Source: Escherichia phage cardinal
Strand: one strand, 5' to 3'
Sequence record: PQ567651.1
Length of the DNA stretch: 64,000 bases
Positions 3,287 through 62,045 of the stretch are shown here, piece by piece. Both the position numbers and the translations under genes were made by a program. The notes under the pieces were generated by a model that was given only the letters and a program-made list of their open reading frames with translations, did not search any database and was not told where the DNA came from. Position 1 is the first letter of the stretch. Each line of letters starts with the position of its first letter.

Positions 3287-3288
3287 TA

Positions 3289-3630: not shown

Positions 3631-3788
3631 GTAGGTATTATGCATTACTCAGTTTGGTCAGAGCAAGAAGAGGATGAAGGGCATTTTATCTATAAAGAGG
3701 AAGAAAACTGTAGCGATACGAGTAATGATCTTTTACTTCCTGATTACAGTTTTTTCGCTGATAGATTAAAAGAGTATGGGGAAAATTG

Positions 3789-4699: not shown

Positions 4700-4700
4700 G

Positions 4701-5633
4701 GTGGCTAAGTTCAATTGTGATGACCTGATTGCAAAAGGTTTAGTGCATAAAAAAGAAGTTAAATCTGGAGAGTATGCTGGTCTTGCTGTGCTTAAATACA
4801 AAAACAATGTATTCTGGGATAATTTGTGGAACGTTGACAAACGACTTTTAGATTGTCGTGGGTTGGTTGTTGACTCAGAAGATAATGTTGTTATTTGGCC
4901 TTTTACTAAAATCTTTAATCGTTTTGAAAATGGTACAGATCTTCCAGCAGACGAAATTGTAGATGCTGTCCGTAAAGTAAACGGTTTTATGGCATCTGTA
5001 GGTGTGTACAAAGGGAAACTTGTTGTATCAACAACAGGGAGCCTAGAATCAGATTTCGCAATTATGGCAAAGAACCGTATTGTTTCCGAGTGTGACGACA
5101 TAGAGTATTTCATTAAGTGGACAGAGAGTGCAAAAGCAACTTTTCTTTTTGAAATCTGTGATCCTTCTGATCCACATATTGTCGAAGAAGAACCAGGCGC
5201 ATACTTAATTGGAGCAAGAATTCAAAATCTTGATGGAACAAGTTTCATGTTACCTGAAGGTGTTCTTGATGGGATTGCATCTATTACAAAGTTTAAACGT
5301 CCTGAAGTTTATCCGATGATTAAATTTTCAGATGTTGTTGAAATGTCTAAACATTGTAAACACGAAGGGTTTGTTGTTCGTGAAACAAACTATCCGTTTA
5401 ACTTACTCTTAAAGATTAAGTCACCATACTATCTTGCTAAGAAGTTCCTTATGCGTGGTGGCAATAAGAAGTGGGATATGATTTGGGACAACCCAAACAA
5501 TGCTAAACAAATTGTTGACGAAGAATATTATACTTTGTTAGAATGGCTTCGAAATAACTTTACGAAGGTTCAATGGGCTGCTCTAGATCCACAAGAGCGA
5601 CGTAAAGAAATAGAAAACTTCTTTGGAGGCTAA
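4701..5633 (+). CDS. RNA ligase, T4 Rnl1-like
   Basis: GTG start after AGGAGA; DCRGLVVD...FTKIFNRFENG and KVNG (motif I KxNG) and KIKSPYY resemble recalled T4 Rnl1 segments. Confidence 0.6.
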   Translation: MAKFNCDDLIAKGLVHKKEVKSGEYAGLAVLKYKNNVFWDNLWNVDKRLLDCRGLVVDSEDNVVIWPFTKIFNRFENGTDLPADEIVDAVRKVNGFMASVGVYKGKLVVSTTGSLESDFAIMAKNRIVSECDDIEYFIKWTESAKATFLFEICDPSDPHIVEEEPGAYLIGARIQNLDGTSFMLPEGVLDGIASITKFKRPEVYPMIKFSDVVEMSKHCKHEGFVVRETNYPFNLLLKIKSPYYLAKKFLMRGGNKKWDMIWDNPNNAKQIVDEEYYTLLEWLRNNFTKVQWAALDPQERRKEIENFFGG

Positions 5634-6038
5634 ATGAAACAACTTATCATTTTACGTGGTGTTTCAGGCGCAGGTAAATCTACAGTAGCAGAAATTATTT
5701 CTGAAGGTTATTGGCCTATCTGTGAGGCAGATCAATATCATTACACAGAAAACGGTGTTTACGATTGGAAGCCAGAAAATGTAGGTAAAGCACACTCATG
5801 GTGTCAGAGTATTGTTCGTGATGCTATGGCATCTAATATTAAAAAGATTATTGTCTCTAACACTTCAACCACAGAGAAAGAACTTAAACCTTATTTTACT
5901 ATTGCTGAAGAGTTTGGTTATCAAGTTATCTCTTTAGTTGTTGAAAATAGGCACGGTAACGACTCAATTCATGAGGTTCCACAACATATTCGTGATCAGC
6001 AAGAGAAACGTCTTCGCAGTTCACTTAAGCTACAATAA
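5634..6038 (+). CDS. polynucleotide kinase-like P-loop kinase (T4 Pnk kinase domain-like, no HAD phosphatase domain)
   Basis: N-terminus MKQLIILRGVSGAGKSTVA (Walker A) closely resembles T4 Pnk MKKIILTIGCPGSGKSTWA. Confidence 0.6.
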   Translation: MKQLIILRGVSGAGKSTVAEIISEGYWPICEADQYHYTENGVYDWKPENVGKAHSWCQSIVRDAMASNIKKIIVSNTSTTEKELKPYFTIAEEFGYQVISLVVENRHGNDSIHEVPQHIRDQQEKRLRSSLKLQ

Positions 6039-6047
6039 GGAGAGTGT

Positions 6048-6368
6048 ATGGAAATTTATTCTGGTGAAGGTAAGTATTTTACAGTAGTCGATAATGGTGA
6101 AATTATTATTTATCGCTACGGAAGTGAGTGGAGGAACGAGACAGGAGACGGCTATATCTTATCTTTGCTCAGTTTGATTAATGATCTTACGGAAGAACTT
6201 GAAGAAACAAAACGTTCGTATGATGATCAAGTAGATTCATTAGAAAACATTATTTCAGATCTAAACGAAGAAGTTTCTTGTTTGAATGAACAAGTTTCAG
6301 AATTAACACTGGAATGTGAAGATTTAGGTGATGTTATTGCAGATTTAAATGAACGTCTTAAGGATTAA
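6048..6368 (+). CDS. hypothetical acidic coiled-coil protein
   Basis: track ORF; heptad-like acidic C-terminus. Confidence 0.5.
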   Translation: MEIYSGEGKYFTVVDNGEIIIYRYGSEWRNETGDGYILSLLSLINDLTEELEETKRSYDDQVDSLENIISDLNEEVSCLNEQVSELTLECEDLGDVIADLNERLKD

Positions 6369-6371
6369 TAT

Positions 6372-6596
6372 ATGAGTACAGCTATCTATGTTAAAGGTGT
6401 AAGCGAAGATCAACAAATGTTATTCTCATTTGGTGAGAATACTGAAATGGAAGATATGTTTAATGATATCCTTGATGCCCTTTCTTCGGAAGGGTTCACA
6501 ATGATTACATACTTTATGGCAACATCTTCTGAATACGTTGATACAGATCTTGAAGACTTAATGGAAGAAATTCAAACTCTTGTGTATAATTGGTAA
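6372..6596 (+). CDS. hypothetical acidic protein
   Basis: track ORF, colinear. Confidence 0.5.
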   Translation: MSTAIYVKGVSEDQQMLFSFGENTEMEDMFNDILDALSSEGFTMITYFMATSSEYVDTDLEDLMEEIQTLVYNW

Positions 6597-6604
6597 GGGT
6601 AACT

Positions 6605-6793
6605 ATGACATTTATTGAAGAACTAACGAGAATTGCAAACGCACCTAACAGTAGCGAAGATCCTTACTTTATGGTGGATGATTACACTGGTGGTAATATT
6701 GATGATGCCTATGAACTAGGCAGACTACACGGTGAAATTGAAATGGCTAAATGGGTTCTTTCGCAACTGGAGGTTAAAGATGAAACAAACTAA
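6605..6793 (+). CDS. hypothetical protein
   Basis: ATG at 6605 within track ORF 6590..6793. Confidence 0.45.
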   Translation: MTFIEELTRIANAPNSSEDPYFMVDDYTGGNIDDAYELGRLHGEIEMAKWVLSQLEVKDETN

Positions 6794-7895
6794 TCCTACA
6801 TTATACGGCAAAACTTCTACAGGTAAAATTAAACAATGGTCAGTCTATACCGAAGGTAGTGTTGTAACTGTTGCTCATGGTCAATTAGGTGGAAAGATTA
6901 CTAGCAAATCTTATACAGCAGAACCTAAAAATATTGGTCGCTCAAATGAAACAACAGCAGAAGAACAAGCTGAAATAGAAGCTCTTGCCAAATGGACAAA
7001 GCAACTTAAGAGTGGGTATTATAAAACAAAAGAGGAAGCTGAAAATCATGTTCCTTCCACACCCATGAAATGTCAGGATTATAAAGATTATGCTGATCGT
7101 GTTTTGTTCCCAGGTTATGCACAATATAAATTGAATGGTCTACGTTCAATGATTAACATGCAAGGTGAATGTTTATCTAAAGCTGGGGAGGTATATAAAC
7201 TTCCACCTCACTGGGAAGAAATTCCAACCTTCATTAAAGAAGTAGTTGGTCATCCTCTTGACGGTGAAGTTTTTGCTGGTTTGGGTGTCCTTAGCCTTCA
7301 ACAAATTAATAGTGCGTGGAAAAAGCATAATGCTAACACACCACTTCTTAAATACTATGTATATGATGTTCCTGTGGCATCTGTACCATTTGAGAAGAGG
7401 GTTCAAGTTTTGGCTGCGCTAAAAGAAGTTGTTGAAGATAAAGGTTTAGATGAACTTATTTGTGTAGTACATACAGAGTACATTGAAAACCAAGAACAGT
7501 TTGATGCTTTCTATGCAAAAGCTCTACGTGAGAAAGCGGAAGGTGTGGTGTATCGTAACGCACAAGGTGTTTACGAGTTTGATAAACGTTCTTATGATGT
7601 TATTAAACGTAAACCACGACAGACGCTTGAAGTTAAAGTGGTAAGTGCAAAGCGTGATAAAAATGGTGACGGGGTATTGACAGGCGAGATGGAAAATGGT
7701 AAAGTAGTCGAATTCCTGATGCGTAAGGATTCAGATGAAACCATTAACTATCGTAAAGCAGAAAATGCCGAAATGTTAATTGGTAAATTTGTTGAGATTG
7801 AGTATGAAGAGTTTTCCGATGGTGGAATACCTACGAAACCAACAGGTGTCCGTTTACGTAAGATGATTCCAGGTACTTGGGAACCAGCAGAGTAA
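6780..7895 (+). CDS. ATP-dependent ligase-like nucleotidyltransferase (DNA or RNA ligase)
   Basis: ATG after GGAGG; candidate motif I YKLNGLR (KxNGxR); track ORF starts upstream at 6732. Confidence 0.5.
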   Translation: MKQTNPTLYGKTSTGKIKQWSVYTEGSVVTVAHGQLGGKITSKSYTAEPKNIGRSNETTAEEQAEIEALAKWTKQLKSGYYKTKEEAENHVPSTPMKCQDYKDYADRVLFPGYAQYKLNGLRSMINMQGECLSKAGEVYKLPPHWEEIPTFIKEVVGHPLDGEVFAGLGVLSLQQINSAWKKHNANTPLLKYYVYDVPVASVPFEKRVQVLAALKEVVEDKGLDELICVVHTEYIENQEQFDAFYAKALREKAEGVVYRNAQGVYEFDKRSYDVIKRKPRQTLEVKVVSAKRDKNGDGVLTGEMENGKVVEFLMRKDSDETINYRKAENAEMLIGKFVEIEYEEFSDGGIPTKPTGVRLRKMIPGTWEPAE

Positions 7896-7903
7896 GAGAT
7901 AAT

Positions 7904-8083
7904 ATGGTATTAGTAACAGTTCTTATGATGTTAATTGCTATTGCAATTATAATGTTAGCCTCGTTTCCAGTGGACAAATGGTACTGCAATTTTTGTAGAT
8001 TTGTTGTTTTCCTCTGTGCTGGGGTGTATATGGGCGAATCGGTAGTTCGCATTAGTGTTTTGTTAGAACAATATTTTAAATAA
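7904..8083 (+). CDS. hypothetical small membrane protein
   Basis: hydrophobic stretch VLVTVLMMLIAIAIIMLA; weak RBS. Confidence 0.35.
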   Translation: MVLVTVLMMLIAIAIIMLASFPVDKWYCNFCRFVVFLCAGVYMGESVVRISVLLEQYFK

Positions 8084-8092
8084 GGAGAAACA

Positions 8093-8815
8093 ATGATCGA
8101 GAATTTTTTCAAACAAGTAAAAGTGGACAATAGCTTCTTTATCAAAGCTGCCGATCAAATTGTTGCTTGGAATGCTAAGGCACGTGGTGGAGTAACCCCA
8201 GAATTTACTCAAGAGATGTTTGAAGCTCAACTTTCTTTTGTACGAGAAGAACTTAAAGAGTTTCAAGCAGCAGCACAGGAAAATGATCACGTTGAATTAC
8301 TTGATGCAGCAGCAGATATTTTTGTGGTAGCCTCCTACCTGGCATTTATGTTCTTTGGTAAAGAAGGTGTTGATAAAGCTCTGGAAATGCCGACAGGAGA
8401 TGTTCTGGCAGAAAACATTTACGATGTTATCATTGAATTTGATAAAATGGTAGAAAATGACTTGCAATTTGCCTTAATGTCTCTTACACTTACACGTATG
8501 GCACGAGATACTTTGGTGCGTTCTGTCTATAACGAGAAGAAGGTTATGCGTGAAGTGTTGAATAGCAATGAGTCCAAGTATCCTACCAAGAAGCAACTCC
8601 TGGCTATTTGGGAAACTAAGGATATTATTGAAGCTCTTGAAAAAGAGTGCGATGCTATCGAGATGCGAAGCAAAGATCGTGCAGAAGGTTCTTATACTGG
8701 GGTACATGCTGTATATAACGAAGTTCAAAAGGTGTACGTATTCTTTGATGACAAAGGTAAAATTATGAAACCATCTACCTTTGTTAAACCTAATATCGCA
8801 GCAATCATTGCTTAA
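8093..8815 (+). CDS. hypothetical protein, possibly MazG-like NTP pyrophosphohydrolase
   Basis: EELKEF...ELLDAAADIFVVASYLA resembles the MazG-type all-alpha NTP-PPase motif; weak. Confidence 0.4.
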   Translation: MIENFFKQVKVDNSFFIKAADQIVAWNAKARGGVTPEFTQEMFEAQLSFVREELKEFQAAAQENDHVELLDAAADIFVVASYLAFMFFGKEGVDKALEMPTGDVLAENIYDVIIEFDKMVENDLQFALMSLTLTRMARDTLVRSVYNEKKVMREVLNSNESKYPTKKQLLAIWETKDIIEALEKECDAIEMRSKDRAEGSYTGVHAVYNEVQKVYVFFDDKGKIMKPSTFVKPNIAAIIA

Positions 8816-18831: not shown

Positions 18832-19167
18832 ATGCCTACATTAGTTGTATTACCTGGAGCAACACCACAAAGACATTGGGGAAATTATACACTGGTAGAT
18901 AGTAAAGATTTTACATTCGATTGGTGTTGCCATTATATTGCAGGTTTTCAATTTTCCAGTGTTGAAATATGGGCTTCCAATGATCCAGAAGCTACCTGGT
19001 ATGCTTTAACCAGGGCAAGATATGATGGAGAGGTTACTGTACTACTCACAAAGAGTGTATGGAACGCATTAGAGAAGGCTTACATAGAGAATGGTATGGA
19101 GAGAAAACACATTGATACAATAAAAGCAATGTGTGATATTGTGGAGGATTTAAATGGCAGCGATTAA
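18832..19167 (+). CDS. hypothetical protein
   Basis: track ORF between nrdA and nrdB. Confidence 0.5.
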   Translation: MPTLVVLPGATPQRHWGNYTLVDSKDFTFDWCCHYIAGFQFSSVEIWASNDPEATWYALTRARYDGEVTVLLTKSVWNALEKAYIENGMERKHIDTIKAMCDIVEDLNGSD

Positions 19168-20239
19168 TTTATACAACGACACTTACAAAGAAGGTTTCTA
19201 CCCTGTATTTTTGGGAGAACAGTTAGGTATTTTTGATTCTATTAACGTAACATACCCAGAAATGCATCGTCTGTACAAACTACAAAAACAGCAAGATTGG
19301 GATGAAAACGAAGTAAACTTAGATCAGACACGAAAAGATTTCGTAGCTTGTTCTAAAAGCAACTATGATGTTATGATCAAAAACCTATCCTTCCAATGGG
19401 AAAATGATTCACTTGCTAAATCAATCATCACTTTGTTTGCACCATTTTTAAGCAACAACGAAGCATGTGCAATGATGATGAAGCAATCAGAAATGGAAGT
19501 TTTACACGCTTTGACATATTCTGAAATTATTCGTCAGTGTATCCCTAATCCAAATGAAGTTATCGATCAGATTATGGAGAACGAAAGAATCTTCCAGAGG
19601 ATGGGTATAGTTGAAGAGATAATGAGTGATCTGGCAGAGGCAGGGCATAAATATGCTCTAGGTCTGATTGAGAAGGATGATAACCTTCGTCTACTGATTC
19701 TGAAAGGAATGATTGCACTTATCGGTCTGGAAGGCATTCAATTCATATCATCTTTTGCTGCAACATTTGCCTTAGCAGAGCAGCAATTGTTTGTAGGTGC
19801 AGCTAAACTCATTCAAAAAATTATGTTGGATGAACTATTGCACGTTAAAATGGATTATGCTATTATTGATGCACTGCTGAAAGATCCTGTTTGGAGAAAA
19901 GTATACGAAGACAATATCGACGTTCTGACAGAAATTCTTGACACGGTAGTTGGACAAGAGGAAGATTGGTGTGACTATCTGTTTAGTGAAGGAAGGGTTA
20001 TCGTTGGTGGTAACGCAGAGTTGTTCAAACTTTGGGTTTACTTCAATGCCGCGCCTATCTATCGCAGACTGAAAATGAAACACAAATTCCGTGCACCGAA
20101 GAAAAGTCCACTGCCTTGGATGGATGTTTGGTTAAATCCAGATCAAATTCAAGCAGCAGCACAGGAGATCCAAATTACAGCTTACAAACTGAATTCAGCA
20201 AATAAAGATGTAAGTGATGACGAGGAGTTAGACTTCTAA
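19154..20239 (+). CDS. nrdB: ribonucleoside-diphosphate reductase small subunit
   Basis: 361 aa; position after nrdA and iron-ligand-like E/H-containing helices; C-terminal acidic tail DDEELDF. Confidence 0.8.
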   Translation: MAAINLYNDTYKEGFYPVFLGEQLGIFDSINVTYPEMHRLYKLQKQQDWDENEVNLDQTRKDFVACSKSNYDVMIKNLSFQWENDSLAKSIITLFAPFLSNNEACAMMMKQSEMEVLHALTYSEIIRQCIPNPNEVIDQIMENERIFQRMGIVEEIMSDLAEAGHKYALGLIEKDDNLRLLILKGMIALIGLEGIQFISSFAATFALAEQQLFVGAAKLIQKIMLDELLHVKMDYAIIDALLKDPVWRKVYEDNIDVLTEILDTVVGQEEDWCDYLFSEGRVIVGGNAELFKLWVYFNAAPIYRRLKMKHKFRAPKKSPLPWMDVWLNPDQIQAAAQEIQITAYKLNSANKDVSDDEELDF

Positions 20240-20457
20240 TGAAACTACTTTGTGTTGGATTAATTTCTGACTTCAAAGACGTTTTCGAAAAGGGAGCCTC
20301 TTATGAGGCTTCCGAATTACAGAATGGTTTCTGTGATGTTTACGGCAAACGTTTAAAAAAGAATGGTGATCATTGGCTAGGAGTTATGTCTTGCGGTCAT
20401 ATTATAGTTAATGGTGTAGCCAAGTTTGAAATTATCAAAGGAGAAAAAGATGATTGA
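20239..20457 (+). CDS. hypothetical protein
   Basis: track ORF. Confidence 0.45.
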   Translation: MKLLCVGLISDFKDVFEKGASYEASELQNGFCDVYGKRLKKNGDHWLGVMSCGHIIVNGVAKFEIIKGEKDD

Positions 20458-20632
20458 TTTTGTTGATGTAGATATTAATTCTGACTTAACAGAAGATGAA
20501 GGTGGTGCTTTTGTGTGTTCAGATGGAGAGAAATGTTTTACTCTGATGGTAGAAACTTATGATGGTATCACAGAAATTCTGTTAACAGAGAATGAGTTAA
20601 AACAGATGTTAGAAAAGATTGAGGAGCTTTAA
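20450..20632 (+). CDS. hypothetical protein
   Basis: ATG after GGAGAAAAAG within track ORF 20426..20632. Confidence 0.45.
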   Translation: MIDFVDVDINSDLTEDEGGAFVCSDGEKCFTLMVETYDGITEILLTENELKQMLEKIEEL

Positions 20633-20634
20633 TA

Positions 20635-20781
20635 ATGGACGATGTAAGTATTTGTCCTATCTGCGGCGGCACTGGGAATTTTATTGTTAGTATGGAACAA
20701 TTTATTCCTTGTTGGAATTGTAACGGTTTAGGTTTCGTTCATACGGAAGAAAAAGAAGAGGAGGAAGATAATGGGAACTAA
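20635..20781 (+). CDS. small Cys-pair (zinc-ribbon-like) protein
   Basis: 48 aa, CPICGG...CWNCNG; RBS GAGGAG; below track size cutoff. Confidence 0.35.
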   Translation: MDDVSICPICGGTGNFIVSMEQFIPCWNCNGLGFVHTEEKEEEEDNGN

Positions 20782-21097
20782 TATTGAATGGCGTATGTTA
20801 CAGGGTGCGCCTTTTAATAAATGGGAAGAGGCTGTAGGAGAAGATCCTAGAATTGAAGAAGAATTTGATGGAGATTTTAACTGGTTCTTACAAGAAGGTC
20901 TTGATTTAAGTCGTATCTCTCCTTTCTATGACGCTGATGAATCTTACTGCATATATGGCATTTATTTAGAAGGTGGCGAAGGAAGTATAGCTGTAGATCT
21001 TGAGCAACTAAATAAGAATGCAAAAGAAGCCTATGCACAACTTCTTGAAAAATATAACATTGAAACGGAAACTATTATTTCTCAACACGTTTGGTAA
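20771..21097 (+). CDS. hypothetical protein
   Basis: track ORF. Confidence 0.5.
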   Translation: MGTNIEWRMLQGAPFNKWEEAVGEDPRIEEEFDGDFNWFLQEGLDLSRISPFYDADESYCIYGIYLEGGEGSIAVDLEQLNKNAKEAYAQLLEKYNIETETIISQHVW

Positions 21098-21110
21098 GGA
21101 GGATAGTAGA

Positions 21111-21308
21111 ATGATGCTAGATCAACTGATCAATGCTCCTCGCGTAACAGTAAGTCCAAAAACATTTGCATCACTTTTAGAAGATGCTAGAGAGGTTTAT
21201 AACTTTACTGAAGAAGAGATTCCTGTTCCTGTTGAAAAAGGTTCCAGATGGTTGTTTTATGAAGGTATTATTTTTACTGAAGGGAATAATTGGAAGGAGA
21301 CTAAATGA
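21111..21308 (+). CDS. hypothetical protein
   Basis: ATG after AAGGAGG within track ORF 21018..21308. Confidence 0.45.
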   Translation: MMLDQLINAPRVTVSPKTFASLLEDAREVYNFTEEEIPVPVEKGSRWLFYEGIIFTEGNNWKETK

Positions 21309-22213
21309 AATACTTAGTAACAGGTGGTTTAGGCTTTATTGGAAGTGCGGTAGTTCGTTTCCTGGCTAAAAACACTAAGAATGATATTTACGTTATAGAT
21401 AAATGGAGTTACGCTTCAGACCCTAGAAATTTATCAGAAACACCTAATGTAAAGTTTTGTCGTGTTGACTTGACAAATGCTCAGTTAACTGCTAAGATTG
21501 TGGCAGATGTTAATCCAGATTATATAATGCATCTTGCAGCAGAAAGTCACGTAGATAACTCAATAGCATCACCGAGTGTTTTTATAAATTCAAATATTGT
21601 TGGAACATTTAATCTTCTAGAAGCTGTTCGTTTAATGGGAGATAAATCAAATCTTAAAATGTTTCATCATATTTCAACAGACTATGTTTTTGATGGGCAT
21701 GTTGCTGGCACAGAAGATAGTAAAACAAACCCCTTGAACACCTACGGTTACAGTAAACAATTAGGTGAAACTTTAGTACAAACAGTTTGTCCTACAGCAC
21801 TTATTATCAGAACAGCTTCTGTTTATAGTGAATTTGGACATAACTTTTTGAAAACTATGTTGGAACGCTACAACGGTGGTCAAAAAGAATTTAATGTAGT
21901 ATGTGATCATTTATCATGTCCTACTTATGCACCTGATCTTGCAGAAACAATTTTTAAACTTGTAAAAGATGGTGTAAATAGTAAAATTGTACACTATGCA
22001 GGTGCAGATTATATTTCTTGGTATGATTTTGCACGAAAGATATTTCTTGTTATAGATTTATCTGTTACAGTTAATCCTGTATCTGCTTCAACCTATAATT
22101 CCAAAGCAGTCAGACCAGCAACATCTTATTTAAGAACAGATCCTACTTTAAATCCGCGAAGTGTTGATAGCGGTATTGTAAGAGCTTTAACTATACTTTT
22201 AAACAAGGAGTGA
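21305..22213 (+). CDS. NAD(P)-dependent epimerase/reductase, RmlD (dTDP-4-dehydrorhamnose reductase)-like
   Basis: Rossmann VTGGLGFIGS and STDYVFDG motif characteristic of RmlD-type reductases. Confidence 0.5.
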   Translation: MKYLVTGGLGFIGSAVVRFLAKNTKNDIYVIDKWSYASDPRNLSETPNVKFCRVDLTNAQLTAKIVADVNPDYIMHLAAESHVDNSIASPSVFINSNIVGTFNLLEAVRLMGDKSNLKMFHHISTDYVFDGHVAGTEDSKTNPLNTYGYSKQLGETLVQTVCPTALIIRTASVYSEFGHNFLKTMLERYNGGQKEFNVVCDHLSCPTYAPDLAETIFKLVKDGVNSKIVHYAGADYISWYDFARKIFLVIDLSVTVNPVSASTYNSKAVRPATSYLRTDPTLNPRSVDSGIVRALTILLNKE

Positions 22214-22476
22214 AAATGAATTTTATTATCTACGGTAAACCAAATTGTCCTTTCTGCACTAACGCTAAGATTCTACTAGAACAGCGTGAACAGGATTTTA
22301 AATACCTTACCTTAGATGAAGACTATTCTTTAGATCAGATTCAGAATCTGGTTTTAGAGAAAACAGGTGTTCTACCACGCACATTTCCTCAGATTTTTGT
22401 GGAAGATGGTGAACAGCTAACCCACGTAGGAGGTTTTTCTGAACTACGTGAATTCATGGCTCAGATTGCGGAGTAA
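22210..22476 (+). CDS. glutaredoxin / NrdH-like redoxin
   Basis: 88 aa with CPFC active site and thioredoxin-fold length. Confidence 0.75.
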   Translation: MKMNFIIYGKPNCPFCTNAKILLEQREQDFKYLTLDEDYSLDQIQNLVLEKTGVLPRTFPQIFVEDGEQLTHVGGFSELREFMAQIAE

Positions 22477-22480
22477 CAAT

Positions 22481-22624
22481 ATGAAAGGTAAACAGAAACG
22501 TAAAATCTTTTCTCGTGCTTTGGCAACAGAGCTTAAGTCCCAAACTAAAAAGACGAAGCCTAAACGTGAAATGTCTCCTGAACACCTACTGTTTCAAGAG
22601 TTAGATCATGGGGAGGGCGACTGA
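22481..22624 (+). CDS. small basic protein
   Basis: 47 aa ORF with RBS GGAG; below track cutoff. Confidence 0.3.
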   Translation: MKGKQKRKIFSRALATELKSQTKKTKPKREMSPEHLLFQELDHGEGD

Positions 22625-22636
22625 TATAAGGAAAAC

Positions 22637-23137
22637 ATGGCTAAAGTAGTTGATGTGTTTGATATGTTACGTTTTGATGAAGGACTAAAGCTAACTGTGT
22701 ATCCTGATACCGAAGGGTATTGGACAGTTGGTATTGGACACCTTCTGACAAAACTCAAAGATAAAGCAGAAGCTATACGTATTCTTGATAACTTAGTAGG
22801 TAGAAAAACCAATGGGGTTATTACTGAAGCGGAAGCTAGAAGAATCTTTGAGAGTGACGTAAAGAAAGCGATACAACAAATCCATTCAAGTGCCATATTA
22901 TCTCCTATTTACGATAAAGTAAGTCCTAATCGTAAAATGGCTATTATTAATATGGTATTTCAAATGGGATTGAAAGGTGCAGAATCTTTCAAAAATAGCT
23001 TGACTTTAGTGAGTAATTCATATTATACTCAAGCCTCTATAAATTTACGTAAAAGTAAATGGTATCGCCAAACACCTAATCGCGCAGAGCGTGTAATTCA
23101 GGTACTTAAAACTGGAACATTAGACGCTTATAACTAA
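22637..23137 (+). CDS. T4-type lysozyme (GH24 endolysin)
   Basis: MLRFDEGLKLTVYPDTEGYWTVGIGHLLTK and WYRQTPNRAERVI closely match T4 lysozyme. Confidence 0.85.
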   Translation: MAKVVDVFDMLRFDEGLKLTVYPDTEGYWTVGIGHLLTKLKDKAEAIRILDNLVGRKTNGVITEAEARRIFESDVKKAIQQIHSSAILSPIYDKVSPNRKMAIINMVFQMGLKGAESFKNSLTLVSNSYYTQASINLRKSKWYRQTPNRAERVIQVLKTGTLDAYN

Positions 23138-23140
23138 ACA

Positions 23141-32397: not shown

Positions 32398-33006
32398 ATG
32401 ACTCAAAAAGTTGCATATCAAGTAGATCGTGAAGATGGTGAAGGTAGTGTTGTAGTTTTTGATACACATGGTCTTGCAGCAAGACGCAAAGGCGCTTGTC
32501 TACTGGACATTGGTGGTGAAGATGAATACTGCACTGTACGTAGAGTAAAAGAATTTGATCAATATGCTGAAAAAGGTTTTGTACCCGTGAAAGCACTATT
32601 AGAAGCTGGATGGTGGATACCTAGTGCACATGATTATGATATTTTGGAAGATACAGATGAATTCAACAGTGAAGATTTTGTTTTTTCTCTGGATGAAAAA
32701 TGCGTTTGGAAAAACTGGGATGAAATGGAACGCCATGCTTATTTTATAAACGAAGCATTAGATCGTAAAACTTGGTTTGAAAATACAGTTAAAGCAGCGT
32801 ATCCTCAATTTACTTTTATACAGTTTTGGGGTGGCCCACATCATATTACTCATACAGCATATTTCGAGTTCCCAGGTTCACGTTATAAAGGTACTGTTTA
32901 TTGGGATTGGGACGAGGACAAAGAACCTTCTGCTCAAGACTTCCGTTGCTATGTTTGTCAAGGTGATCAAGAAGCCCTTGACAAGTACCTTAAAAGTCTG
33001 GTATAA
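32398..33006 (+). CDS. hypothetical protein
   Basis: track ORF. Confidence 0.5.
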   Translation: MTQKVAYQVDREDGEGSVVVFDTHGLAARRKGACLLDIGGEDEYCTVRRVKEFDQYAEKGFVPVKALLEAGWWIPSAHDYDILEDTDEFNSEDFVFSLDEKCVWKNWDEMERHAYFINEALDRKTWFENTVKAAYPQFTFIQFWGGPHHITHTAYFEFPGSRYKGTVYWDWDEDKEPSAQDFRCYVCQGDQEALDKYLKSLV

Positions 33007-33023
33007 TCCGTAAAACTTAACCA

Positions 33024-33050
33024 AAGCCCCCCAAGCAGGGGCTTTATTTG
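33024..33050 (+). terminator. hairpin agcccc-ccaagca-ggggct + T-rich tail
   Basis: after stop of 32398..33006. Confidence 0.55.
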
Positions 33051-33062
33051 TCTGGAGGATAT

Positions 33063-33617
33063 ATGGGTTTTGATGATATGTTATTATATGAGGAGGCTTG
33101 TGTGAAAGAAGCTATGGCTTTACCAGTTTTATCTATTGATATTACAACAGTAGACACTTTTTCAGATTGTGAAACGTGTGGATCGTATTCAAGTATTGTA
33201 CATGTGGTCTGTGGGGATTTAGGCACTTACGAAGATGGAGATTATGCAAGTTGTTTAGGTGATAATCAAGATGGTGAAGTGGCAAATGTTGCAAACTGGA
33301 TTGCTTCTAAGTTAAAAGAAAGAAATCGTCCGTTCCCTAATCTTCTTACACCAGAAGCTATGCTTAAAGCTGAACAAGAGATGTATGATTATGGTTATAA
33401 AGTAGATTATGACTATAATGATCCTAATTATAAAAAATTGAGTGACAAGTATTGGGAACTAGCTAACGCTTATGATAAATACTACTCTACAGAAAACATT
33501 GTTAAATTGTTTTTAGATTTTGGAGTAGAAATTAATTGGGATTTCGAAGAGGAAGAGCGTTACGACGCATCTTCTTGGGATGATGATTACGAAGAGGATA
33601 TTGAATGCGAAGAGTAA
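33063..33617 (+). CDS. hypothetical acidic protein
   Basis: ATG after GGAGG within track ORF 33048..33617. Confidence 0.5.
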   Translation: MGFDDMLLYEEACVKEAMALPVLSIDITTVDTFSDCETCGSYSSIVHVVCGDLGTYEDGDYASCLGDNQDGEVANVANWIASKLKERNRPFPNLLTPEAMLKAEQEMYDYGYKVDYDYNDPNYKKLSDKYWELANAYDKYYSTENIVKLFLDFGVEINWDFEEEERYDASSWDDDYEEDIECEE

Positions 33618-34417
33618 TTTTTGTTAGTGGCGCAGGACTATCTGTGGATAGCGGTATCCCAGCTTTTAGAACAGATACTTCTTCAGGGGAGGCGTTATGG
33701 TCTTCTTATGATCTTTCTGAGGTTTGTGACATTTTCAACTTCCGTGACGGTTATCAGCAAGAACAAGGTGTTCTTGATGCTATGGGTGGTTTAGATGCGG
33801 AAGGATATAACCTCTACCGTAAAACTCACGACTTTTACAATAAACGTCGCGTGGAATTAGAGAAAGTTGACCCGAATCCAGCACATCTTCAGATTGGAGA
33901 ATGGTTCAAAAAATATGGCCCAGAACGAATTATTAACATTACTACTAACGTGGATGACCTCCTTGAACGAGCAGGAGTAGATAGGGAAGAAGTGCTACAT
34001 GTGCACGGTTTTCTTCCTGAAATTACTTTTCAAAGAAAAGCCGGACAACCTACAATTGTAAAAGATGTTGGTTATCAAGCCATAGATGTAGATGACTACC
34101 ATTATGTAAAACCTAATGTAATTTTCTTTGGGGAAGCTGCTCCACTTTACACGGATATGTATTATATTTTTGATACACTGACGGCTCAAGATTTGGTTGT
34201 AGTAGTAGGATGTTCAAACCAAGTTATCAATTTTAATTGGGAATTATTCCCTGCACTTAATATGGGTACAAAAATGATCGTTGTTAACCCAGGAATTAAT
34301 TACGAAGAAACTCTTCTTTACGAAGATAGAGGAGTCTTTGTTTATCGAGAAAAGGCCGCAGATGCTTTTAGCAATCCTGCTTTCATAAAAATGATAGAAG
34401 ATCATTTGACTAAATAA
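33605..34417 (+). CDS. Sir2-family (sirtuin-like) NAD-dependent protein
   Basis: VSGAGLSVDSGIPAFR, TTNVDDL, HG, PNVIFFGE, VVGCS match sirtuin motifs. Confidence 0.7.
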   Translation: MRRVIFVSGAGLSVDSGIPAFRTDTSSGEALWSSYDLSEVCDIFNFRDGYQQEQGVLDAMGGLDAEGYNLYRKTHDFYNKRRVELEKVDPNPAHLQIGEWFKKYGPERIINITTNVDDLLERAGVDREEVLHVHGFLPEITFQRKAGQPTIVKDVGYQAIDVDDYHYVKPNVIFFGEAAPLYTDMYYIFDTLTAQDLVVVVGCSNQVINFNWELFPALNMGTKMIVVNPGINYEETLLYEDRGVFVYREKAADAFSNPAFIKMIEDHLTK

Positions 34418-34424
34418 CTTAACC

Positions 34425-34448
34425 AAGGGGCGAAAGCCCCTTTTCTTA
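34425..34448 (+). terminator. rho-independent terminator ggggc-gaaa-gcccc + TTTT
   Basis: third copy of the same terminator hairpin. Confidence 0.7.
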
Positions 34449-34460
34449 TAGGAGAATATT

Positions 34461-34718
34461 ATGACCACAGAACAAATCGTTAAAGACCATTTTATGATGC
34501 ACTACGTTTATTACTTCAATAATAATCAACAGAAAGGTGAGGGATTTTGTTATCTATCCGCACAACAAGGTTTTGGTATCCGTCAAGCAGATATTAACGG
34601 AGCAGTGGCTGGAATTACAAAAGGCTTGGTTGCAAACCTTAAAGACAATGTTGTTGTTGTCCCAACGTGCATCTCTTACCTCTCAACCTGCCCTGAAGAA
34701 GATTTTATGCATTCCTAA
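34461..34718 (+). CDS. hypothetical protein
   Basis: track ORF, last gene of plus block. Confidence 0.5.
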   Translation: MTTEQIVKDHFMMHYVYYFNNNQQKGEGFCYLSAQQGFGIRQADINGAVAGITKGLVANLKDNVVVVPTCISYLSTCPEEDFMHS

Positions 34719-34783: not shown

Positions 34784-34820
34784 CAAAAGCCCCTAGAATC
34801 GCTTCTAGGGGCTTTATTTT
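34784..34820. terminator. bidirectional terminator at convergence of plus and minus blocks
   Basis: aaaagcccctagaatcgcttctaggggctttatttt: 9-bp stem flanked by A-tract and T-tract. Confidence 0.65.
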
Positions 34821-57467: not shown

Positions 57468-57586
57468 GTTTTACATACAGAAGAGGAAGCGCCACCCCCA
57501 CGGCGTAAAGGCGGGGCTAACATACCAGGGCACTACTGGTTGGAAGGTTGATCGCTGGTACAACGTATTTACAAAGGAGGTTAGCA

Positions 57587-58180
57587 ATGAAAAAAGTTTT
57601 TGGAGTAGGCATTAACGATAGTGCAAAGCCGATCAAAGGTTGTCGATTCTATGCAACATGGCGCAACATGTTACAACGTTGTTATAGTGAATCATATCAG
57701 GACAAAAGGCCATCTTATAAAGGTTGTAGTGTTTGTGATGAATGGTTGACGTTTAGCACTTTTCGTGCTTGGATGGAACAGCAGGATCACCAGGGAAAAC
57801 AATTAGATAAAGATATAATAACACCGGGTAATAAACTCTATTGTCCTGATCGTTGCGTATTTGTAACGCAAGAAATGAATAGTTTGTTAACAGTTACAAA
57901 GAGTAACAAAGGGGATCATCCTTTGGGTGTTTCATTTTTGAATCATAAACCATTGCCGCGCCCTTATTTAGCAACAATACGTTATAATAACGTAGTGGAA
58001 AGATTAGGGTACTATGTAGATCCTTTATCCGCTCATTTGGCCTGGAATAGGCGCAAACGTGAAATAATCATAGAGATTATTAGTAATGAAACGGATTCAA
58101 GGATCGCCGCTGGCTTGGCTTTACGTGTTGACGCTCTCGATCTGGCTTATGAAAATAAAGCGGAAATAACTTGCTTATGA
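57587..58180 (+). CDS. putative homing-endonuclease-like DNA-binding protein
   Basis: ATG after AAGGAGG; N-terminal FYATWRNMLQRCYSESY...GCSVCDEW motif and AP2-like GVSF...RLGYY segment. Confidence 0.4.
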   Translation: MKKVFGVGINDSAKPIKGCRFYATWRNMLQRCYSESYQDKRPSYKGCSVCDEWLTFSTFRAWMEQQDHQGKQLDKDIITPGNKLYCPDRCVFVTQEMNSLLTVTKSNKGDHPLGVSFLNHKPLPRPYLATIRYNNVVERLGYYVDPLSAHLAWNRRKREIIIEIISNETDSRIAAGLALRVDALDLAYENKAEITCL

Positions 58181-59082: not shown

Positions 59083-59538
59083 TCACGATCCCACATTCCC
59101 ATTTTTGATACCATAAATAGAATCATAAGGGCTTGCCTCTACGAACTCCTTATCTGCGTAAGCGATAAGTTTATTTTTGAGATCTTCATTTTGTGTGTAT
59201 TTAAGATACAAACCACGTTTGACAATCTTCTCCCGTAAAGAAGTCCAGGTATCTTCATCATAATCTTTAACTAATCTGCCTAGACGTTTATAATATGCTT
59301 GTTCTTTTTCTCCTGTATATCTTAGATCTCCGGTTAAAATAGAAGATGCAATATTGTAATCATAAAACAAACATGCTTTTCTCCACATCATATATTGTTC
59401 CACACAAGTAAATTCGACAGAACTTGTGATAGAATTATTATACTTGGGAGCTAAAGGTTCAATAAAAGATGATAGATACCAGTTGCTAAATTCATCTTTT
59501 GCCGAGAAAAAGAACACATACTTGTCAGTAATCCGCAT
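59083..59538 (-). CDS. NADAR (YbiA-like, DUF1768) domain protein; C-terminus apparently frameshifted
   Basis: FTCVEQYMMWRKACLF, RLGRLVKDYDEDTW, EFVEASPYDSIYGI match NADAR; conserved C-terminal WKGQNLLG lies in +1 frame. Confidence 0.6.
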   Translation of the reverse strand: MRITDKYVFFFSAKDEFSNWYLSSFIEPLAPKYNNSITSSVEFTCVEQYMMWRKACLFYDYNIASSILTGDLRYTGEKEQAYYKRLGRLVKDYDEDTWTSLREKIVKRGLYLKYTQNEDLKNKLIAYADKEFVEASPYDSIYGIKNGNVGS

Positions 59539-60936
59539 TTACACCTCCTTATTGTATACTAATTTGCCACCATATTGTGTAACAATTTTTTGAAGATTTT
59601 CCAAATCAGAAACACTTACTGTTTCTGTATGACCATCTTTCAACTCTCTTGCCGTTAAAATACCAGTTTTTAATTTTTTCTTTATAGCTCTTTCAGCAGC
59701 CTTACATTGTTTCACTGTGCTAAAATCATATAAACAAATACGCTCCATAGGAAACATATTACAGCTATTTTGACGTTTTAATCGACTATCACTATTTTTA
59801 GCTATACCAAACTTAAGAGCAACTATAATATTATCATCCTTAACAATATTAATATATAACTGCTGCTGACTATGACCAGCACACATAGGACAACCTCGAC
59901 CGTGGCTTAATAAGGCATTAGCCCTCCCTGTCTGTTCCCCATGCACAAGACAAAGATATTTAAACTTACCGTGACTTCTAGACGGTTTACCGATCCAACC
60001 TACCCAGACATACCCTTTCCCTTCTACTTCCTTTTTTACCCTGTAGGTAATCTGATTTTCTGTATAGTGATAACTAGTTGCACAGCGGCAAGGGATACTT
60101 CCTTGTTTTAGGGGCCACCCTTTAGAGTAAAATTTACCATCGCAAACACCTGCTTGAACATATTCATCATGGGAGCAAACAGGACACTCAACCATCCATA
60201 CTGCATCACGCTTGTTACGTTTCCCTGTATTGGTGAAGATAGTGCCTTCCTTAAATTTCCCTGTAGAAAAGAAATCTGCAATATGTTGATCGTCGGACAT
60301 TGTTAGTGCCTTCCTTGTATTCTCATACCTACATAAAGGACAACCATAACCACGTTTAAAATTGTTAATACTTGTAGTATCCCATTTATAACCACAGTGA
60401 CACAACAAATCAAGTTTTGTTTTATGTCCTTTCCATTTTCCAACGTACCCTAACACCTGATACCCCTTCTTCTGTGCTATCTCTTCCAAGATCGGTAATT
60501 CTGTTTCCCATGCTAACGGTTTATTACTTGCACATGCCGGACAACCACGTCCATTCCTAAAATCAATAATGTTTGTGGTGTTCCACTCTCCATGTTTAGG
60601 GCAAATTATGCGAATTTTTGTTCGCACACCTCGCCACTCCTCGGCAAGACCTATAAAAGTAAACCCTCTTTCTTTAGCAATATCAACAAGGGAGATACAT
60701 TCCTTTTCTTCTGTTACTTTTCTATGACCATTGCAATCGGAGCAACATTTACCGCCTTTAGTTTTAAATACATTGATTATGGTACTTTCCCACTCTCCAT
60801 GATCAGAGCAAGATAGCTTAAGCCTAGTCCTGCTACCTTTCCATTCACCAACATAACCCAAGATTTGAATATTGTGATTTTTAGCAAGGGGTATTAATTC
60901 TTCTTTATATTGTTCCCATGATTTTAGTGCTACCAT
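59539..60936 (-). CDS. protein with five N-terminal Cys-rich (zinc-ribbon-like) repeats and C-terminal T5orf172/GIY-YIG-like domain
   Basis: repeats of LGYVGEWKG..TKL.L.C..HGEW.TT.IN.F..G.GCP.C; C-terminal LYINIV...FGIAKNSDSRLKRQ. Confidence 0.5.
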   Translation of the reverse strand: MVALKSWEQYKEELIPLAKNHNIQILGYVGEWKGSRTRLKLSCSDHGEWESTIINVFKTKGGKCCSDCNGHRKVTEEKECISLVDIAKERGFTFIGLAEEWRGVRTKIRIICPKHGEWNTTNIIDFRNGRGCPACASNKPLAWETELPILEEIAQKKGYQVLGYVGKWKGHKTKLDLLCHCGYKWDTTSINNFKRGYGCPLCRYENTRKALTMSDDQHIADFFSTGKFKEGTIFTNTGKRNKRDAVWMVECPVCSHDEYVQAGVCDGKFYSKGWPLKQGSIPCRCATSYHYTENQITYRVKKEVEGKGYVWVGWIGKPSRSHGKFKYLCLVHGEQTGRANALLSHGRGCPMCAGHSQQQLYINIVKDDNIIVALKFGIAKNSDSRLKRQNSCNMFPMERICLYDFSTVKQCKAAERAIKKKLKTGILTARELKDGHTETVSVSDLENLQKIVTQYGGKLVYNKEV

Positions 60937-61010: not shown

Positions 61011-62045
61011 TTAAAACACACTTGCCAAAGTTGCACCATTGGTGATAGTTGGTTCCAGAACAATACGGAAAGAATCTTCTGGATCATCACTAAACACAAC
61101 GATTTTACCGCCTGTAATAAGGTCTGCTTTCATTTTTGTCGCATTCAATGGAATTCGAGCATCTCCTTCATCATCAAAAACCACGTAAGAGCTATTAGCA
61201 AGGGCTTCTTTAGAGTCTGCATCACTTGGAGATGACAAGTACACGTCTAGTGTGCACGAACCACCTAAAAAGATTGCAGGTGTGAAGTTATGCCAACTAG
61301 ATACCCAGCTAACTTTCTGAAGTTTTCCATTAATAACAACGCTGCTGATATCCCATTTATTACCACCACCTAAAGAAACACCCATCATAGAGATGCATTC
61401 TTTAAAGGATAAATCAGGGTAGAAATTAAGTTCTTCTACTATACCTTGGATCACATCAAAGGACAACTCTAAACTTACATCCCAAAGTCTTTGGAAATTA
61501 TCAAAGTGTGCTTTGTTATCCAGGTTTTTATCTAAATAGTCAATCATAGTTTCTAGTGAGATTTTATCATAATTAAAATTATAAAACACACGACTAGGAC
61601 GATTTAAAAAGAATTCAGAGATAAAACCACTGTTTTTAGTCAGAATAAACAGTTTATTACCACTGCCAGTACCATCTAACAAAGTGAGAAGTGCTTCTTG
61701 ATCTTGTTTCTTCTCATACACTTTATCAAACTCGTCAAAAATAATCACTGCTTTGTCGGTGATCTTGCTAATAAGTTCAATGAAATTAGCATCGCTGTAG
61801 GCTTGAGTAACCATAATAGTTGGAATACCTTCTTCTACAAGGTCACGACTAATGAGTTTGGCTAACATAGTTTTACCACTGCCCTTAGTTCCTGTCAGGA
61901 GCAAACCTGTATTTTTACCTTGTGCACTCCGGCGATGGAATGTACGAATAACGTGATTTGCTCGTTTTTCTGTTTCACCATACAGAACATCCGGTACACC
62001 TGTTAGATTACCACGGCTTAAAAAAATAATTGCCAAGGGGATCAC
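61011..62045 (-). CDS. AAA+/P-loop ATPase; N-terminus may extend to ATG near 62140 through a frameshift at an A7/T7 run
   Basis: Walker A GTKGSGKTML, Walker B VIIFDEFD; GTG start lacks RBS while upstream ATG has AAGGGG RBS in +1 frame. Confidence 0.6.
   Translation of the reverse strand: MIPLAIIFLSRGNLTGVPDVLYGETEKRANHVIRTFHRRSAQGKNTGLLLTGTKGSGKTMLAKLISRDLVEEGIPTIMVTQAYSDANFIELISKITDKAVIIFDEFDKVYEKKQDQEALLTLLDGTGSGNKLFILTKNSGFISEFFLNRPSRVFYNFNYDKISLETMIDYLDKNLDNKAHFDNFQRLWDVSLELSFDVIQGIVEELNFYPDLSFKECISMMGVSLGGGNKWDISSVVINGKLQKVSWVSSWHNFTPAIFLGGSCTLDVYLSSPSDADSKEALANSSYVVFDDEGDARIPLNATKMKADLITGGKIVVFSDDPEDSFRIVLEPTITNGATLASVF

Follow-up and report, generated by a model that had tools for sequence, protein, structure and literature searches.

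A zinc-less sirtuin gene of a phi92-like coliphage and its candidate activities

A gene on the plus strand at 33605-34417 of the analyzed DNA (the window, a stretch of 64,000 nucleotides from a phi92-like coliphage) raises the question of whether its product is a working Sir2-family enzyme and, if so, which NAD+-dependent reaction it performs and on what substrate. The interval was found to be one ATG-to-stop ORF of 270 aa (pI 4.7) with a GAGGA ribosome-binding site 7 nt 5' of the ATG, and its product was assigned to the Sir2 family (sirtuins), within a zinc-less phage clade. The Sir2-like protein named in the initial annotation was confirmed by these exact bounds, by a match to Pfam SIR2 (PF02146; E=3.7e-20, 73 bits, cut-off 24), and by a full-length match to PHROG 2162 ‘Sir2 (NAD-dependent deacetylase)’ (E=2.6e-99), and every motif quoted there was located (GAGLS at residues 9-13, SGIPAFR at 16-22, TTNVDD(L) at 113-119, and PNVIFFGE at 170-177).

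Family assignment and active site

A sequence search of the PDB matched 92 distinct sequences (E<=0.1); sirtuins were all but one among the 60 of these 92 matches that were listed, and the top matches among those listed were Sir2-Af2 and E. coli CobB, followed by SIRT5. An AF2 model of the protein (pLDDT 74.6, pTM 0.75) was compared with known structures using Foldseek, in which CobB ranked best, followed by Sir2-Af1 and SIRT5 (best matches 1s5p, 6rxm, and 3riy), and the best 50 structural matches were all classical sirtuins. The NCBIfam CobB/deacylase models (NF040867 / PRK00481) scored far below their cut-offs, the best match reaching 93.7 bits where 243 are required, and another 77.9 where 320 are required. 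The ORF encodes a single-domain sirtuin from a large phage-borne branch of CobB/SIRT5-like (class III-type) sirtuins, and it is almost certainly a genuine, functional member of the family.

The segments of the gene that specify the active site and its surroundings are as follows.

33629..33670, plus strand: codons of the NAD+-binding motifs G9-A-G-x-S13 and S16-G-I-P-x-F21-R22, invariant or nearly so in 121 homologs and aligned with Sir2-Af2 and CobB
33833..33850, plus strand: codons of F77-Y78-N-K-R81-R82, the class III (CobB/SIRT5) Tyr-x-x-Arg dyad, aligned with FYNARR of CobB
33941..34006, plus strand: codons from T113-T114-N115-V-D117-D118 (the TQNID equivalent, Gln replaced by Thr) to the catalytic H134
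34010..34114, plus strand: codons of residues 136-170, the part of the small domain where classical sirtuins have CxxC...CxxC; no Cys
34124..34252, plus strand: codons of F174-F-G-E177 and of the clade-specific block G202-C-S-N-Q-V-I-N-F-N-W-E-L-F-P216

Conservation was counted over 121 clade homologs spanning 52-89% identity. Invariant throughout (121/121) were F21, R22, Y78, R81, R82, N115, and D117, together with H134, F174, F175, E177, G202, S204, and N228. The catalytic His, which the initial annotation had left to alignment together with the zinc-binding cysteines, is H134 of HVHG; its counterparts in the alignment are the His of the Sir2-Af2 ELHG and that of the CobB HMHG. The GxS motif (G202-C-S204) and N228, the conserved Asn of the adenine-ribose site, are also kept. 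Because the NAD+ site and the catalytic His are intact, NAD+-consuming activity, as anticipated from the motifs, is very likely.

The zinc-binding cysteines turned out to be absent. The whole protein holds only C41 and C203, and the small-domain segment contains 0 or 1 Cys in each of the 121 clade members, whereas the nearest zinc-bearing relatives have CxxC...CxxC at positions aligned with the small domain of the phage protein. In the AF2 model, three beta-strands are retained across residues 136-170 (pLDDT about 70-86); pLDDT falls below 50 at residues 205-212, within the clade-specific block. The Gln of TQNID is Thr (T114) in every clade member, and in a set of 140 representatives, each 200 aa or longer, Thr occurred together with zinc loss in 35 and Gln together with the zinc tetrad in 71. 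Across relatives, zinc loss tracks the Gln-to-Thr change, which is a new detail; zinc loss as such had been remarked for the Sir2 of KVP40-like phages (PMC5107563).

Compared with CobB and SIRT5, the phage protein shares the fold, the NAD+ motifs, the catalytic His, the FGE loop, and the Tyr-x-x-Arg dyad (FYNKRR vs FYNARR in CobB). It differs in being only about 20-24% identical, in lacking the zinc-binding Cys, in having Thr for the TQNID Gln, in a variable insert at residues 47-70, and in the substrate-staple loop, where the classical GxSxxVxP (GTSxxVYP in CobB/SIRT5) is replaced by the invariant clade block GCSNQVINFNWELFP.

Locus organization, relatives, and recombination

The elements surrounding the gene are listed below.

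32978..33007, plus strand: sigma-70-type promoter-like site, TTGACA-18-TATAAT with extended TG (12/12), a pattern match from a consensus scan that in itself says nothing about function
33023..33045, plus strand: GC-rich hairpin that separates the promoter-like site from the first gene of the unit
33063..33617, plus strand: gene for a very acidic 184-aa protein (pI 4.05, PHROG 9509), the stop of which overlaps the Sir2 start by 13 nt
34425..34442, plus strand: terminator-like hairpin 8 nt 3' of the Sir2 stop, AAGGGGCGAAAGCCCCTT and then TTCTT
34461..34718, plus strand: 85-aa ORF (PHROG 15991) with which the plus-strand gene block ends
34786..34815, no strand assigned: strong bidirectional terminator-like hairpin with a 13-bp stem, at the meeting point of the converging plus- and minus-strand gene blocks

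The promoter-like site, the ribosome-binding site, and the terminator-like hairpin enclose a two-gene unit that consists of the acidic protein and Sir2. The promoter-like site overlaps the end of the preceding gene, the hairpin at 33023..33045 may weakly terminate transcripts from upstream or form a stem in the 5'-UTR, and the sign of the GC skew flips at about 34 kb. Genes adjoining Sir2 had no Pfam domain, and no macro domain or NADAR was found next to it. The acidic protein was considered as a conserved Sir2 partner and rejected: it is no clade-wide partner, since no more than 133 phage records, almost exclusively from Stephanstirmvirinae, contain a homolog, and in phage nepoznato another gene intervenes between the two. 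A similarity of the acidic protein to the L32 zinc ribbon (E=0.0045) was below any threshold.

The Sir2 gene is already known, being annotated as Sir2-like in close relatives and discussed in PMC5107563 and PMC9503650. The initial annotation made no mention of this existing annotation, of the zinc loss, or of the change of the TQNID Gln to Thr. The product is 99.6% identical to UAB_1 gp039 (“putative Sir2-like protein”), 72% to phi92-type alleles, about 57% to T5-like Sir2, 49% to rV5 ORF84, and about 36% to the KVP40 group; the annotated phage proteins (phi92 gp038, UAB_1 gp039, rV5 ORF84, and the T5-like and KVP40-group Sir2/CobB proteins; PHROG 2162) are direct homologs. Homologs were found in 982 of 50,697 phage records (about 2%), with 289 of the 982 from Salmonella phages, largely T5-like. 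Longer relatives carry WG repeats, a GIY-YIG domain, or nothing recognizable in their extensions; domain fusions were uninformative as a functional clue, the longer relatives being zinc-bearing except for one zinc-less protein that has no extra Pfam domain. A literature search for experimental work on phage sirtuins found none, only annotation-level or in-silico statements, and phages go unmentioned in one review of bacterial sirtuins.

The present allele differs from the annotated ones in being a chimera, a recombinant between phage genera in which the 5' two-thirds are of Phapecoctavirus type and the 3' third is of phi92 type; this is a further new detail. The segment involved is the following.

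33645..34204, plus strand: recombinant segment of the Sir2 gene, 87-98% identical to the Phapecoctavirus (nepoznato) allele and 48-75% to phi92

In the 3' third of the gene and in the flanks, the sequence is phi92-like at 97-100%. With a dN/dS of 0.16 against the nepoznato allele, the gene is under purifying selection.

Candidate activities

The product is most likely an active NAD+-dependent, class-III-derived enzyme, with protein lysine deacylation as the leading but tentative candidate activity. Such an enzyme would cleave NAD+ to nicotinamide and transfer ADP-ribose to the acyl acceptor. Alignment with CobB places Y78 and R81 in the predicted active site. The Tyr-x-x-Arg dyad of CobB and SIRT5 recognizes acidic acyl groups by binding their carboxylate, so the phage enzyme may favor acyl groups with a negative charge (succinyl, malonyl, or glutaryl). 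Expression would occur early in infection from the sigma-70-like promoter of the unit, together with the small acidic protein, and the targets would be proteins of the host or the phage while the metabolism of the cell is being taken over. The protein has a net charge of -16 and the clade is uniformly acidic (median pI 4.9), which is more in keeping with an enzyme directed at proteins than with one that binds RNA. Several observations stand against deacylation. The zinc module, which forms one wall of the peptide cleft in classical sirtuins, is without zinc ligands; the loop that provides half of the peptide beta-staple (GxSxxVxP) has been swapped; the CobB/deacylase models score far under their cut-offs; and in other phages Sir2 lies beside RNA-repair or tRNA-related genes, which points to a role in RNA repair instead.

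RNA repair is the main rival, although an unlikely one. According to this explanation, the sirtuin would use NAD+ for the ADP-ribosylation and removal of the 2'-phosphate on cleaved tRNA or RNA, in the manner of Tpt1/KptA. Its partners would be the RNA ligase, cREC, kinase, phosphoesterase, and MazG-like proteins of the phage, and the group held by the Tyr-x-x-Arg dyad would be a phosphate and not a carboxylate. An RNA-repair role was predicted for most phage sirtuins from their gene neighborhoods by Iyer, Burroughs, Anantharaman, and Aravind in 2022 (PMC9503650), and the present protein belongs by homology to the clade concerned, which takes in the rV5, T5-like, and jumbo-phage sirtuins (49% identity to rV5 ORF84, about 57% to T5-like; same PHROG). 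In rV5, Rnl1/ORF83 and a MazG-like gene flank Sir2. On two T4-like metagenomic contigs a distant zinc-less member adjoins or lies near RlaP (PF10127), a predicted RNA-repair nucleotidyltransferase, and on another contig the Sir2 gene overlaps that of the peptidyl-tRNA hydrolase PTH2. A full RNA-repair module is also encoded in the window (cREC-like, Metallophos, Rnl1, Pnk-like kinase, and MazG-like).

This module, however, is intact at 3.3-8.8 kb, and Sir2 lies about 25 kb away at 33.6 kb as a separate unit with its own promoter-like site and terminator-like hairpin. Sir2 adjoins the RNA-ligase module in rV5 but not here; no RNA-ligase/cREC/kinase/MazG/phosphoesterase neighborhood surrounds it in the window. 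The phyletic patterns also differ, with Sir2 in 982 records and Rnl1 in 689 (only 15 from Salmonella phages and 175 from Pseudomonas phages), and a strict coupling of Sir2 to RNA ligase was rejected as these patterns overlap only partly. Known RNA 2'-phosphotransferases are basic, whereas the sirtuin clade is strongly acidic. Tpt1/KptA is a functional analog only, similar in its NAD+-dependent ADP-ribosyl transfer to an anionic group and unrelated in fold, and no sirtuin is known from biochemistry to act on RNA.

A broader form of the same idea, also considered doubtful, is that the zinc-less clade with the Gln-to-Thr change comprises NAD+-dependent ADP-ribosyltransferases that act on phosphate or another anionic non-protein acceptor, and not deacylases. 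The leading acceptor candidate may be the 2'-phosphate ends of nuclease-cleaved tRNA, and phages may loosely pair Sir2 with genes for NAD+ rebuilding (NARP) and ADP-ribose processing (NADAR). If true, the phage clade would be the first sirtuins known to work on RNA.

Less probable still is an NAD+ glycohydrolase, or a protein or small-molecule ADP-ribosyltransferase, employed in host take-over or counter-defense. A host protein may be modified, or the enzyme may alter the NAD+/nicotinamide/ADP-ribose pool on which the Thoeris, DSR, and SIR2-HerA systems act, and NARP1 would restore NAD+ for the phage. Defense SIR2 NADases are likewise without the zinc module. On contig L014 a distant Sir2 member is directly followed by a NADAR gene, and on contig L011 another lies two genes from NAMPT. 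(A 130-aa neighbor of Sir2 on contig L011 and its homolog at 57752-58057 in the window are both HNH homing-endonuclease fragments and irrelevant.) The genome itself encodes NADAR and a NARP1-like Prs/NAMPT pair.

348-1241, minus strand: Prs-like gene
start near 277, minus strand: NAMPT-like ORF, N-terminus only, running off the window
59083-59538, minus strand: NADAR gene

The co-occurrence claimed for this window thus held for the NAMPT/Prs pair and NADAR; the DUF2829-like protein also claimed was not found, there being no match in 99 small ORFs (E<=0.001) or in 40 other ORFs of the window (E<=0.01). A functional link between these genes and Sir2 found no support, as they lie about 25-33 kb away on the opposite strand. 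Prs/Adps-like genes are far commoner than Sir2 (1566 phage records) and are present in numerous lineages that lack Sir2, among them Staphylococcus, Listeria, Pseudomonas, Felix O1-like, and ICP1 phages, so their co-occurrence here is not specific, and a specific Sir2-NARP1 association was rejected.

Sirtuin folds can serve as NADases or ADP-ribosyltransferases (PMC9503650), and the phage protein has the Rossmann fold, NAD+ use, and lack of a zinc ribbon in common with the defense SIR2 NADases (ThsA, DSR1/DSR2, SIR2-HerA, and SIR2-pAgo). It differs from them in that it is encoded by a lytic phage, has no sensor domain, and keeps the deacylase-specific FGE loop and acyl pocket; no fused or adjoining partner of SLOG, HerA, TIR, or pAgo type was found. 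The analogy with defense NADases drawn in the initial annotation was not borne out, and a defense-type SIR2 effector was rejected: the PADLOC defense models gave no match to Sir2 and its three neighbors, and the closest proteins were the classical deacylases CobB, Sir2-Af1/Af2, and SIRT5, the top structural matches being classical sirtuins throughout. A plain NADase would need neither the FFGE loop nor H134 nor the Y-x-x-R acyl pocket, yet all three are invariant. The macrodomain-linked SirTM is likewise a small sirtuin that could transfer ADP-ribose, and the contig L014 relative followed by NADAR recalls it, but no macro-domain or NADAR gene adjoins the phage gene (NADAR is 25 kb off on the other strand), and the phage protein retains the catalytic His and the class III dyad.

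A catalytically dead or decaying remnant, in which the sirtuin fold would act as a binding protein only or the gene would be a nascent pseudogene after zinc loss, is very improbable: zinc-ligand mutations inactivate classical sirtuins and the gene is subject to recombination, but its catalytic and NAD+-binding residues are invariant or nearly so, its dN/dS is low, the small-domain beta-strands are still predicted, and 911 phage records have the ORF intact (at least 80% coverage).

Significance for phage biology

The present copy is a genuine, ordinary, near-identical allele of an annotated gene and nothing categorically new, and it is useful as a clean representative for experiments, in which mutagenesis could be guided by the zinc loss with the Gln-to-Thr change, by the conserved Tyr-x-x-Arg dyad, and by the substrate loop particular to the clade. 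Sirtuin genes span model and therapy-relevant phages (T5-like, rV5-like, phi92-like, and KVP40-like). Knowing whether their role is protein deacylation, RNA repair, or NAD+ manipulation would fill a gap in phage physiology and would bear on the current view that phages and bacterial immune systems fight over NAD+.

Identity and relatives of the Sir2 gene

Exactly one long ORF, encoding 270 aa, was located at 33605-34417 (+), with a GAGGA ribosome-binding site 7 nt 5' of its ATG. Every sirtuin motif quoted in the initial annotation was found in the product, namely GAGLS (residues 9-13), SGIPAFR (16-22), TTNVDD (113-118), and PNVIFFGE (170-177). The protein scored 73 bits against Pfam SIR2 (gathering score 24) and was matched over its full length by PHROG 2162, 'Sir2 (NAD-dependent deacetylase)' (E=2.6e-99). 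A PDB sequence search returned 92 distinct matches, with Sir2-Af2 (1ma3) and E. coli CobB (1s5p) at the top and sirtuins making up all but one among the 60 listed. Comparison of the AF2 model (pLDDT 74.6, pTM 0.75) with the PDB using Foldseek ranked CobB first, followed by Sir2-Af1 and SIRT5. Judged from these matches, membership of the Sir2 family is beyond doubt. The NCBIfam CobB/deacylase models gave 93.7 bits, far under their cut-off of 243, and a CobB equivalog was therefore ruled out.

The window belongs to a phi92-like myovirus (Stephanstirmvirinae, Justusliebigvirus), and the 2 kb surrounding Sir2 were 98% identical to Salmonella phage UAB_1. The counterpart in UAB_1, UAB1_gp039 (99.6% protein identity), is annotated as 'putative Sir2-like protein', and that in phi92, gp038, as 'predicted NAD-dependent deacetylase (Sir2-like) fold'. 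Homologs were detected with tblastn in 982 of 50,697 phage records, including phi92-/phAPEC8-like, rV5-like, T5-like, Klebsiella Mydovirus-type, and KVP40-like phages and some jumbo phages. The observation is therefore real, but it was annotated before and is widespread.

Several records were noted during these comparisons. Salmonella phage Stitch (T5-like; L003) carries a second 'Sir2'-annotated gene of 171 aa (7156-7671), three genes 3' of the full-length Sir2, possibly a fragment or wrongly annotated. Records named 'Campylobacter phage' (H15, H16, H71, and others; ~146 kb) were 95-96% identical to the phi92-like region of the window, and their host labels look doubtful. Between the ribonucleotide reductase and lysozyme genes the window is ~2.7 kb shorter than UAB_1 (window ~19150-23140; L001 3799-10135), with one 302-aa ORF (21305-22213) where UAB_1 has four dTDP-rhamnose biosynthesis genes.

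Allele structure and local organisation

A detail beyond the initial annotation is that the Sir2 allele is an intragenic chimera, in which the 5' two-thirds resemble the Phapecoctavirus nepoznato allele and the 3' third and flanks resemble phi92. Both the flanks and gene nt 600-813 were 97-100% identical to phi92, but nt 1-600 only 48-79%; the reverse was seen with nepoznato (87-98% over nt 61-600, 63-77% over nt 600-813). The invariant GCSNQVINFNWELFP block, near window position 34200, marks the crossover. Over residues 1-200, dN between the alternative N-terminal versions is 0.32, a substantial divergence at the protein level, and yet, from the alleles compared, one can evidently stand in for the other.

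Sir2 is the last but one gene of a long plus-strand block that ends at ~34.8 kb, where the sign of the GC skew flips.

Features surrounding the Sir2 gene; promoter-, hairpin-, and terminator-like calls are pattern matches and not evidence of function.
32978-33007: promoter-like site, sigma-70-type, 12/12
33023-33045: hairpin
33063-33617 (+): very acidic gene, 184 aa, its stop overlapping the Sir2 start by 13 nt
33605-34417 (+): Sir2 gene
34425-34442: terminator-like hairpin
Between 34425-34442 and 34786-34815: 85-aa ORF
34786-34815: strong bidirectional terminator

The order of the promoter- and terminator-like sites suggests that the acidic gene and Sir2 may form an early two-gene unit driven by the host polymerase. 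The acidic protein (pI 4.05) has an N-terminal C-x2-C...C...C pattern and resembles the L32 zinc ribbon below threshold (E=0.0045). The protein was excluded as a general Sir2 partner because its homologs (133 records) occurred in Stephanstirmvirinae only and because another gene intervenes between the two in nepoznato.

Catalytic residues, zinc loss, and clade signatures

The catalytic His was recovered as H134 (HVHG), which aligned with that of Sir2-Af2 (ELHG) and CobB (HMHG) and was unchanged in 121/121 sequences of the close phage clade. The zinc-binding cysteines are gone, the sole Cys residues being C41 and C203; in the small-domain segment (residues 136-170) each of the 121 clade members has at most one Cys, and the nearest zinc-bearing relatives have CxxC...CxxC at the aligned positions. 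Three beta-strands are still predicted there in the AF2 model, from which the module seems to be retained without metal. Zinc loss in KVP40-group proteins has been recorded before (PMC5107563).

Also invariant in 121/121 sequences were F21, R22, Y78, R81, R82, T114, N115, D117, G135, F174, F175, E177, G202, S204, V207, I208, F210, and N228. The Gln of canonical TQNID is replaced by Thr (T114) in every clade member. A HMMER search covered 1.84 billion representatives, and the 140 matches of at least 200 aa among its best 150 were classified: 35 combined Thr with zinc loss and 71 combined Gln with a four-Cys site, and mixed states were rare. As the sequences are related to one another, these counts are descriptive rather than a statistical test. 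F77-Y78-N-K-R81-R82 aligned with CobB FYNARR, whose Tyr/Arg dyad enables CobB and SIRT5 to recognise succinyl-/malonyl-lysine, and on this alignment the phage clade derives from the class III type; its nearest zinc-bearing relatives carry the same motif. The GxSxxVxP loop, which forms half of the peptide 'beta-staple' in classical sirtuins, is replaced in the clade by its own, nearly invariant block GCSNQVINFNWELFP, the lowest-confidence part of the AF2 model.

Candidate activities

The ORF was intact at 80% coverage or more in 911 records, and dN/dS was 0.16 relative to the closely related nepoznato allele. By every available sign (intact ORF, invariant catalytic set, dN/dS) the gene is functional, and its product is a genuine and intact sirtuin, very probably active, from a phage clade that is known and already annotated. 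No experiment on any phage-clade sirtuin was found in the accessible literature. Among its possible activities we favour, tentatively, a putative lysine deacylase whose class III-type pocket would accept acidic acyl groups, followed by RNA 2'-phosphate removal and then by NADase or ADP-ribosyltransferase activity.

KptA-like removal of RNA 2'-phosphates was proposed for most phage sirtuins by Iyer et al. (PMC9503650), because their genes lie near those for RNA ligase, cREC, kinase, MazG, and phosphoesterase. The rV5 gene order (Rnl1, ORF83, Sir2, MazG-like gene) was confirmed, and independent support came from distant zinc-less members on T4-like metagenomic contigs: RlaP, Sir2, and NADAR directly side by side (L014, 5001-6181), RlaP and NAMPT near Sir2, NAMPT being two genes off (L011, 2993-5711), and Sir2 overlapping a PTH2 peptidyl-tRNA hydrolase gene (L007, 6001-7100). 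In the window, however, homologs of the rV5 Sir2 neighbours are grouped at 3.3-8.8 kb, and Sir2 stands alone ~25 kb further on; every rV5 neighbour with a window match falls in this cluster, two small ORFs having no match.

RNA-repair-like genes of the window.
3256-8815 (+): compact module, syntenic with the rV5 Sir2-flanking genes
Within 3256-8815 (+): cREC-like small protein
4148-4699 (+): Metallophos phosphoesterase
4701-5633 (+): T4 Rnl1-like RNA ligase
5634-6038 (+): Pnk-like P-loop kinase
6732-7895 (+): ATP-dependent DNA ligase
8093-8815 (+): MazG-like protein

The phyletic patterns of Sir2 and Rnl1 overlap in part only: Salmonella phage records numbered 289 for Sir2 (largely T5-like) versus 15 for this Rnl1 family, the one ligase family counted, and 175 Pseudomonas phage records had Rnl1, Pseudomonas lying outside the top ten host genera of Sir2 matches. 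The clade is acidic throughout (median pI ~4.9; net charge of the window Sir2 -16), which would not be expected of an RNA-end enzyme. Given the distant module, the partial overlap, and the acidity, RNA repair was therefore kept as the main rival, itself rather unlikely, and not as the best explanation.

An NADase or ADP-ribosyltransferase acting in host take-over or counter-defence is improbable; the analogy with defence Sir2 domains drawn in the initial annotation was not borne out, as PADLOC defence models matched neither Sir2 nor its neighbouring genes and the best 50 Foldseek matches were all classical sirtuins. Of the NAD+-related genes said to co-occur with Sir2, the NAMPT/Prs pair and NADAR are present, but none is linked to it within the window, and no DUF2829 match was found among the window ORFs scanned.

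NAD+-related genes of the window.
348-1241 (-): Prs-like (Prs/Adps) gene
Start ~277, running off the window (-): N-terminus of a NAMPT-like ORF, following the Prs/Adps gene
59083-59538 (-): NADAR-domain gene

The first two probably represent the NARP1 Adps/Namat NAD+ reconstitution pair, as compared with bioRxiv 10.1101/2024.02.11.579819. Since Prs/Adps-like genes occurred in 1566 phage records, many Sir2-less lineages among them, and the genes are unlinked here, their co-occurrence with Sir2 says little. The NADAR gene lies directly 3' of genes for a CapR/T5orf172-domain protein (465 aa, 59539-60936, -) and an AAA-type ATPase (61011-62045, -). An HNH homing-endonuclease fragment (57548-58180, +; C-terminal half of the PHROG 953 profile only) sits inside the minus-strand block, with local G+C raised to 0.42.

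The Sir2 finding is ordinary and already known; the role of phage sirtuins is a worthwhile question, which the window copy alone renders no more tractable than T5, rV5, and KVP40 already do.
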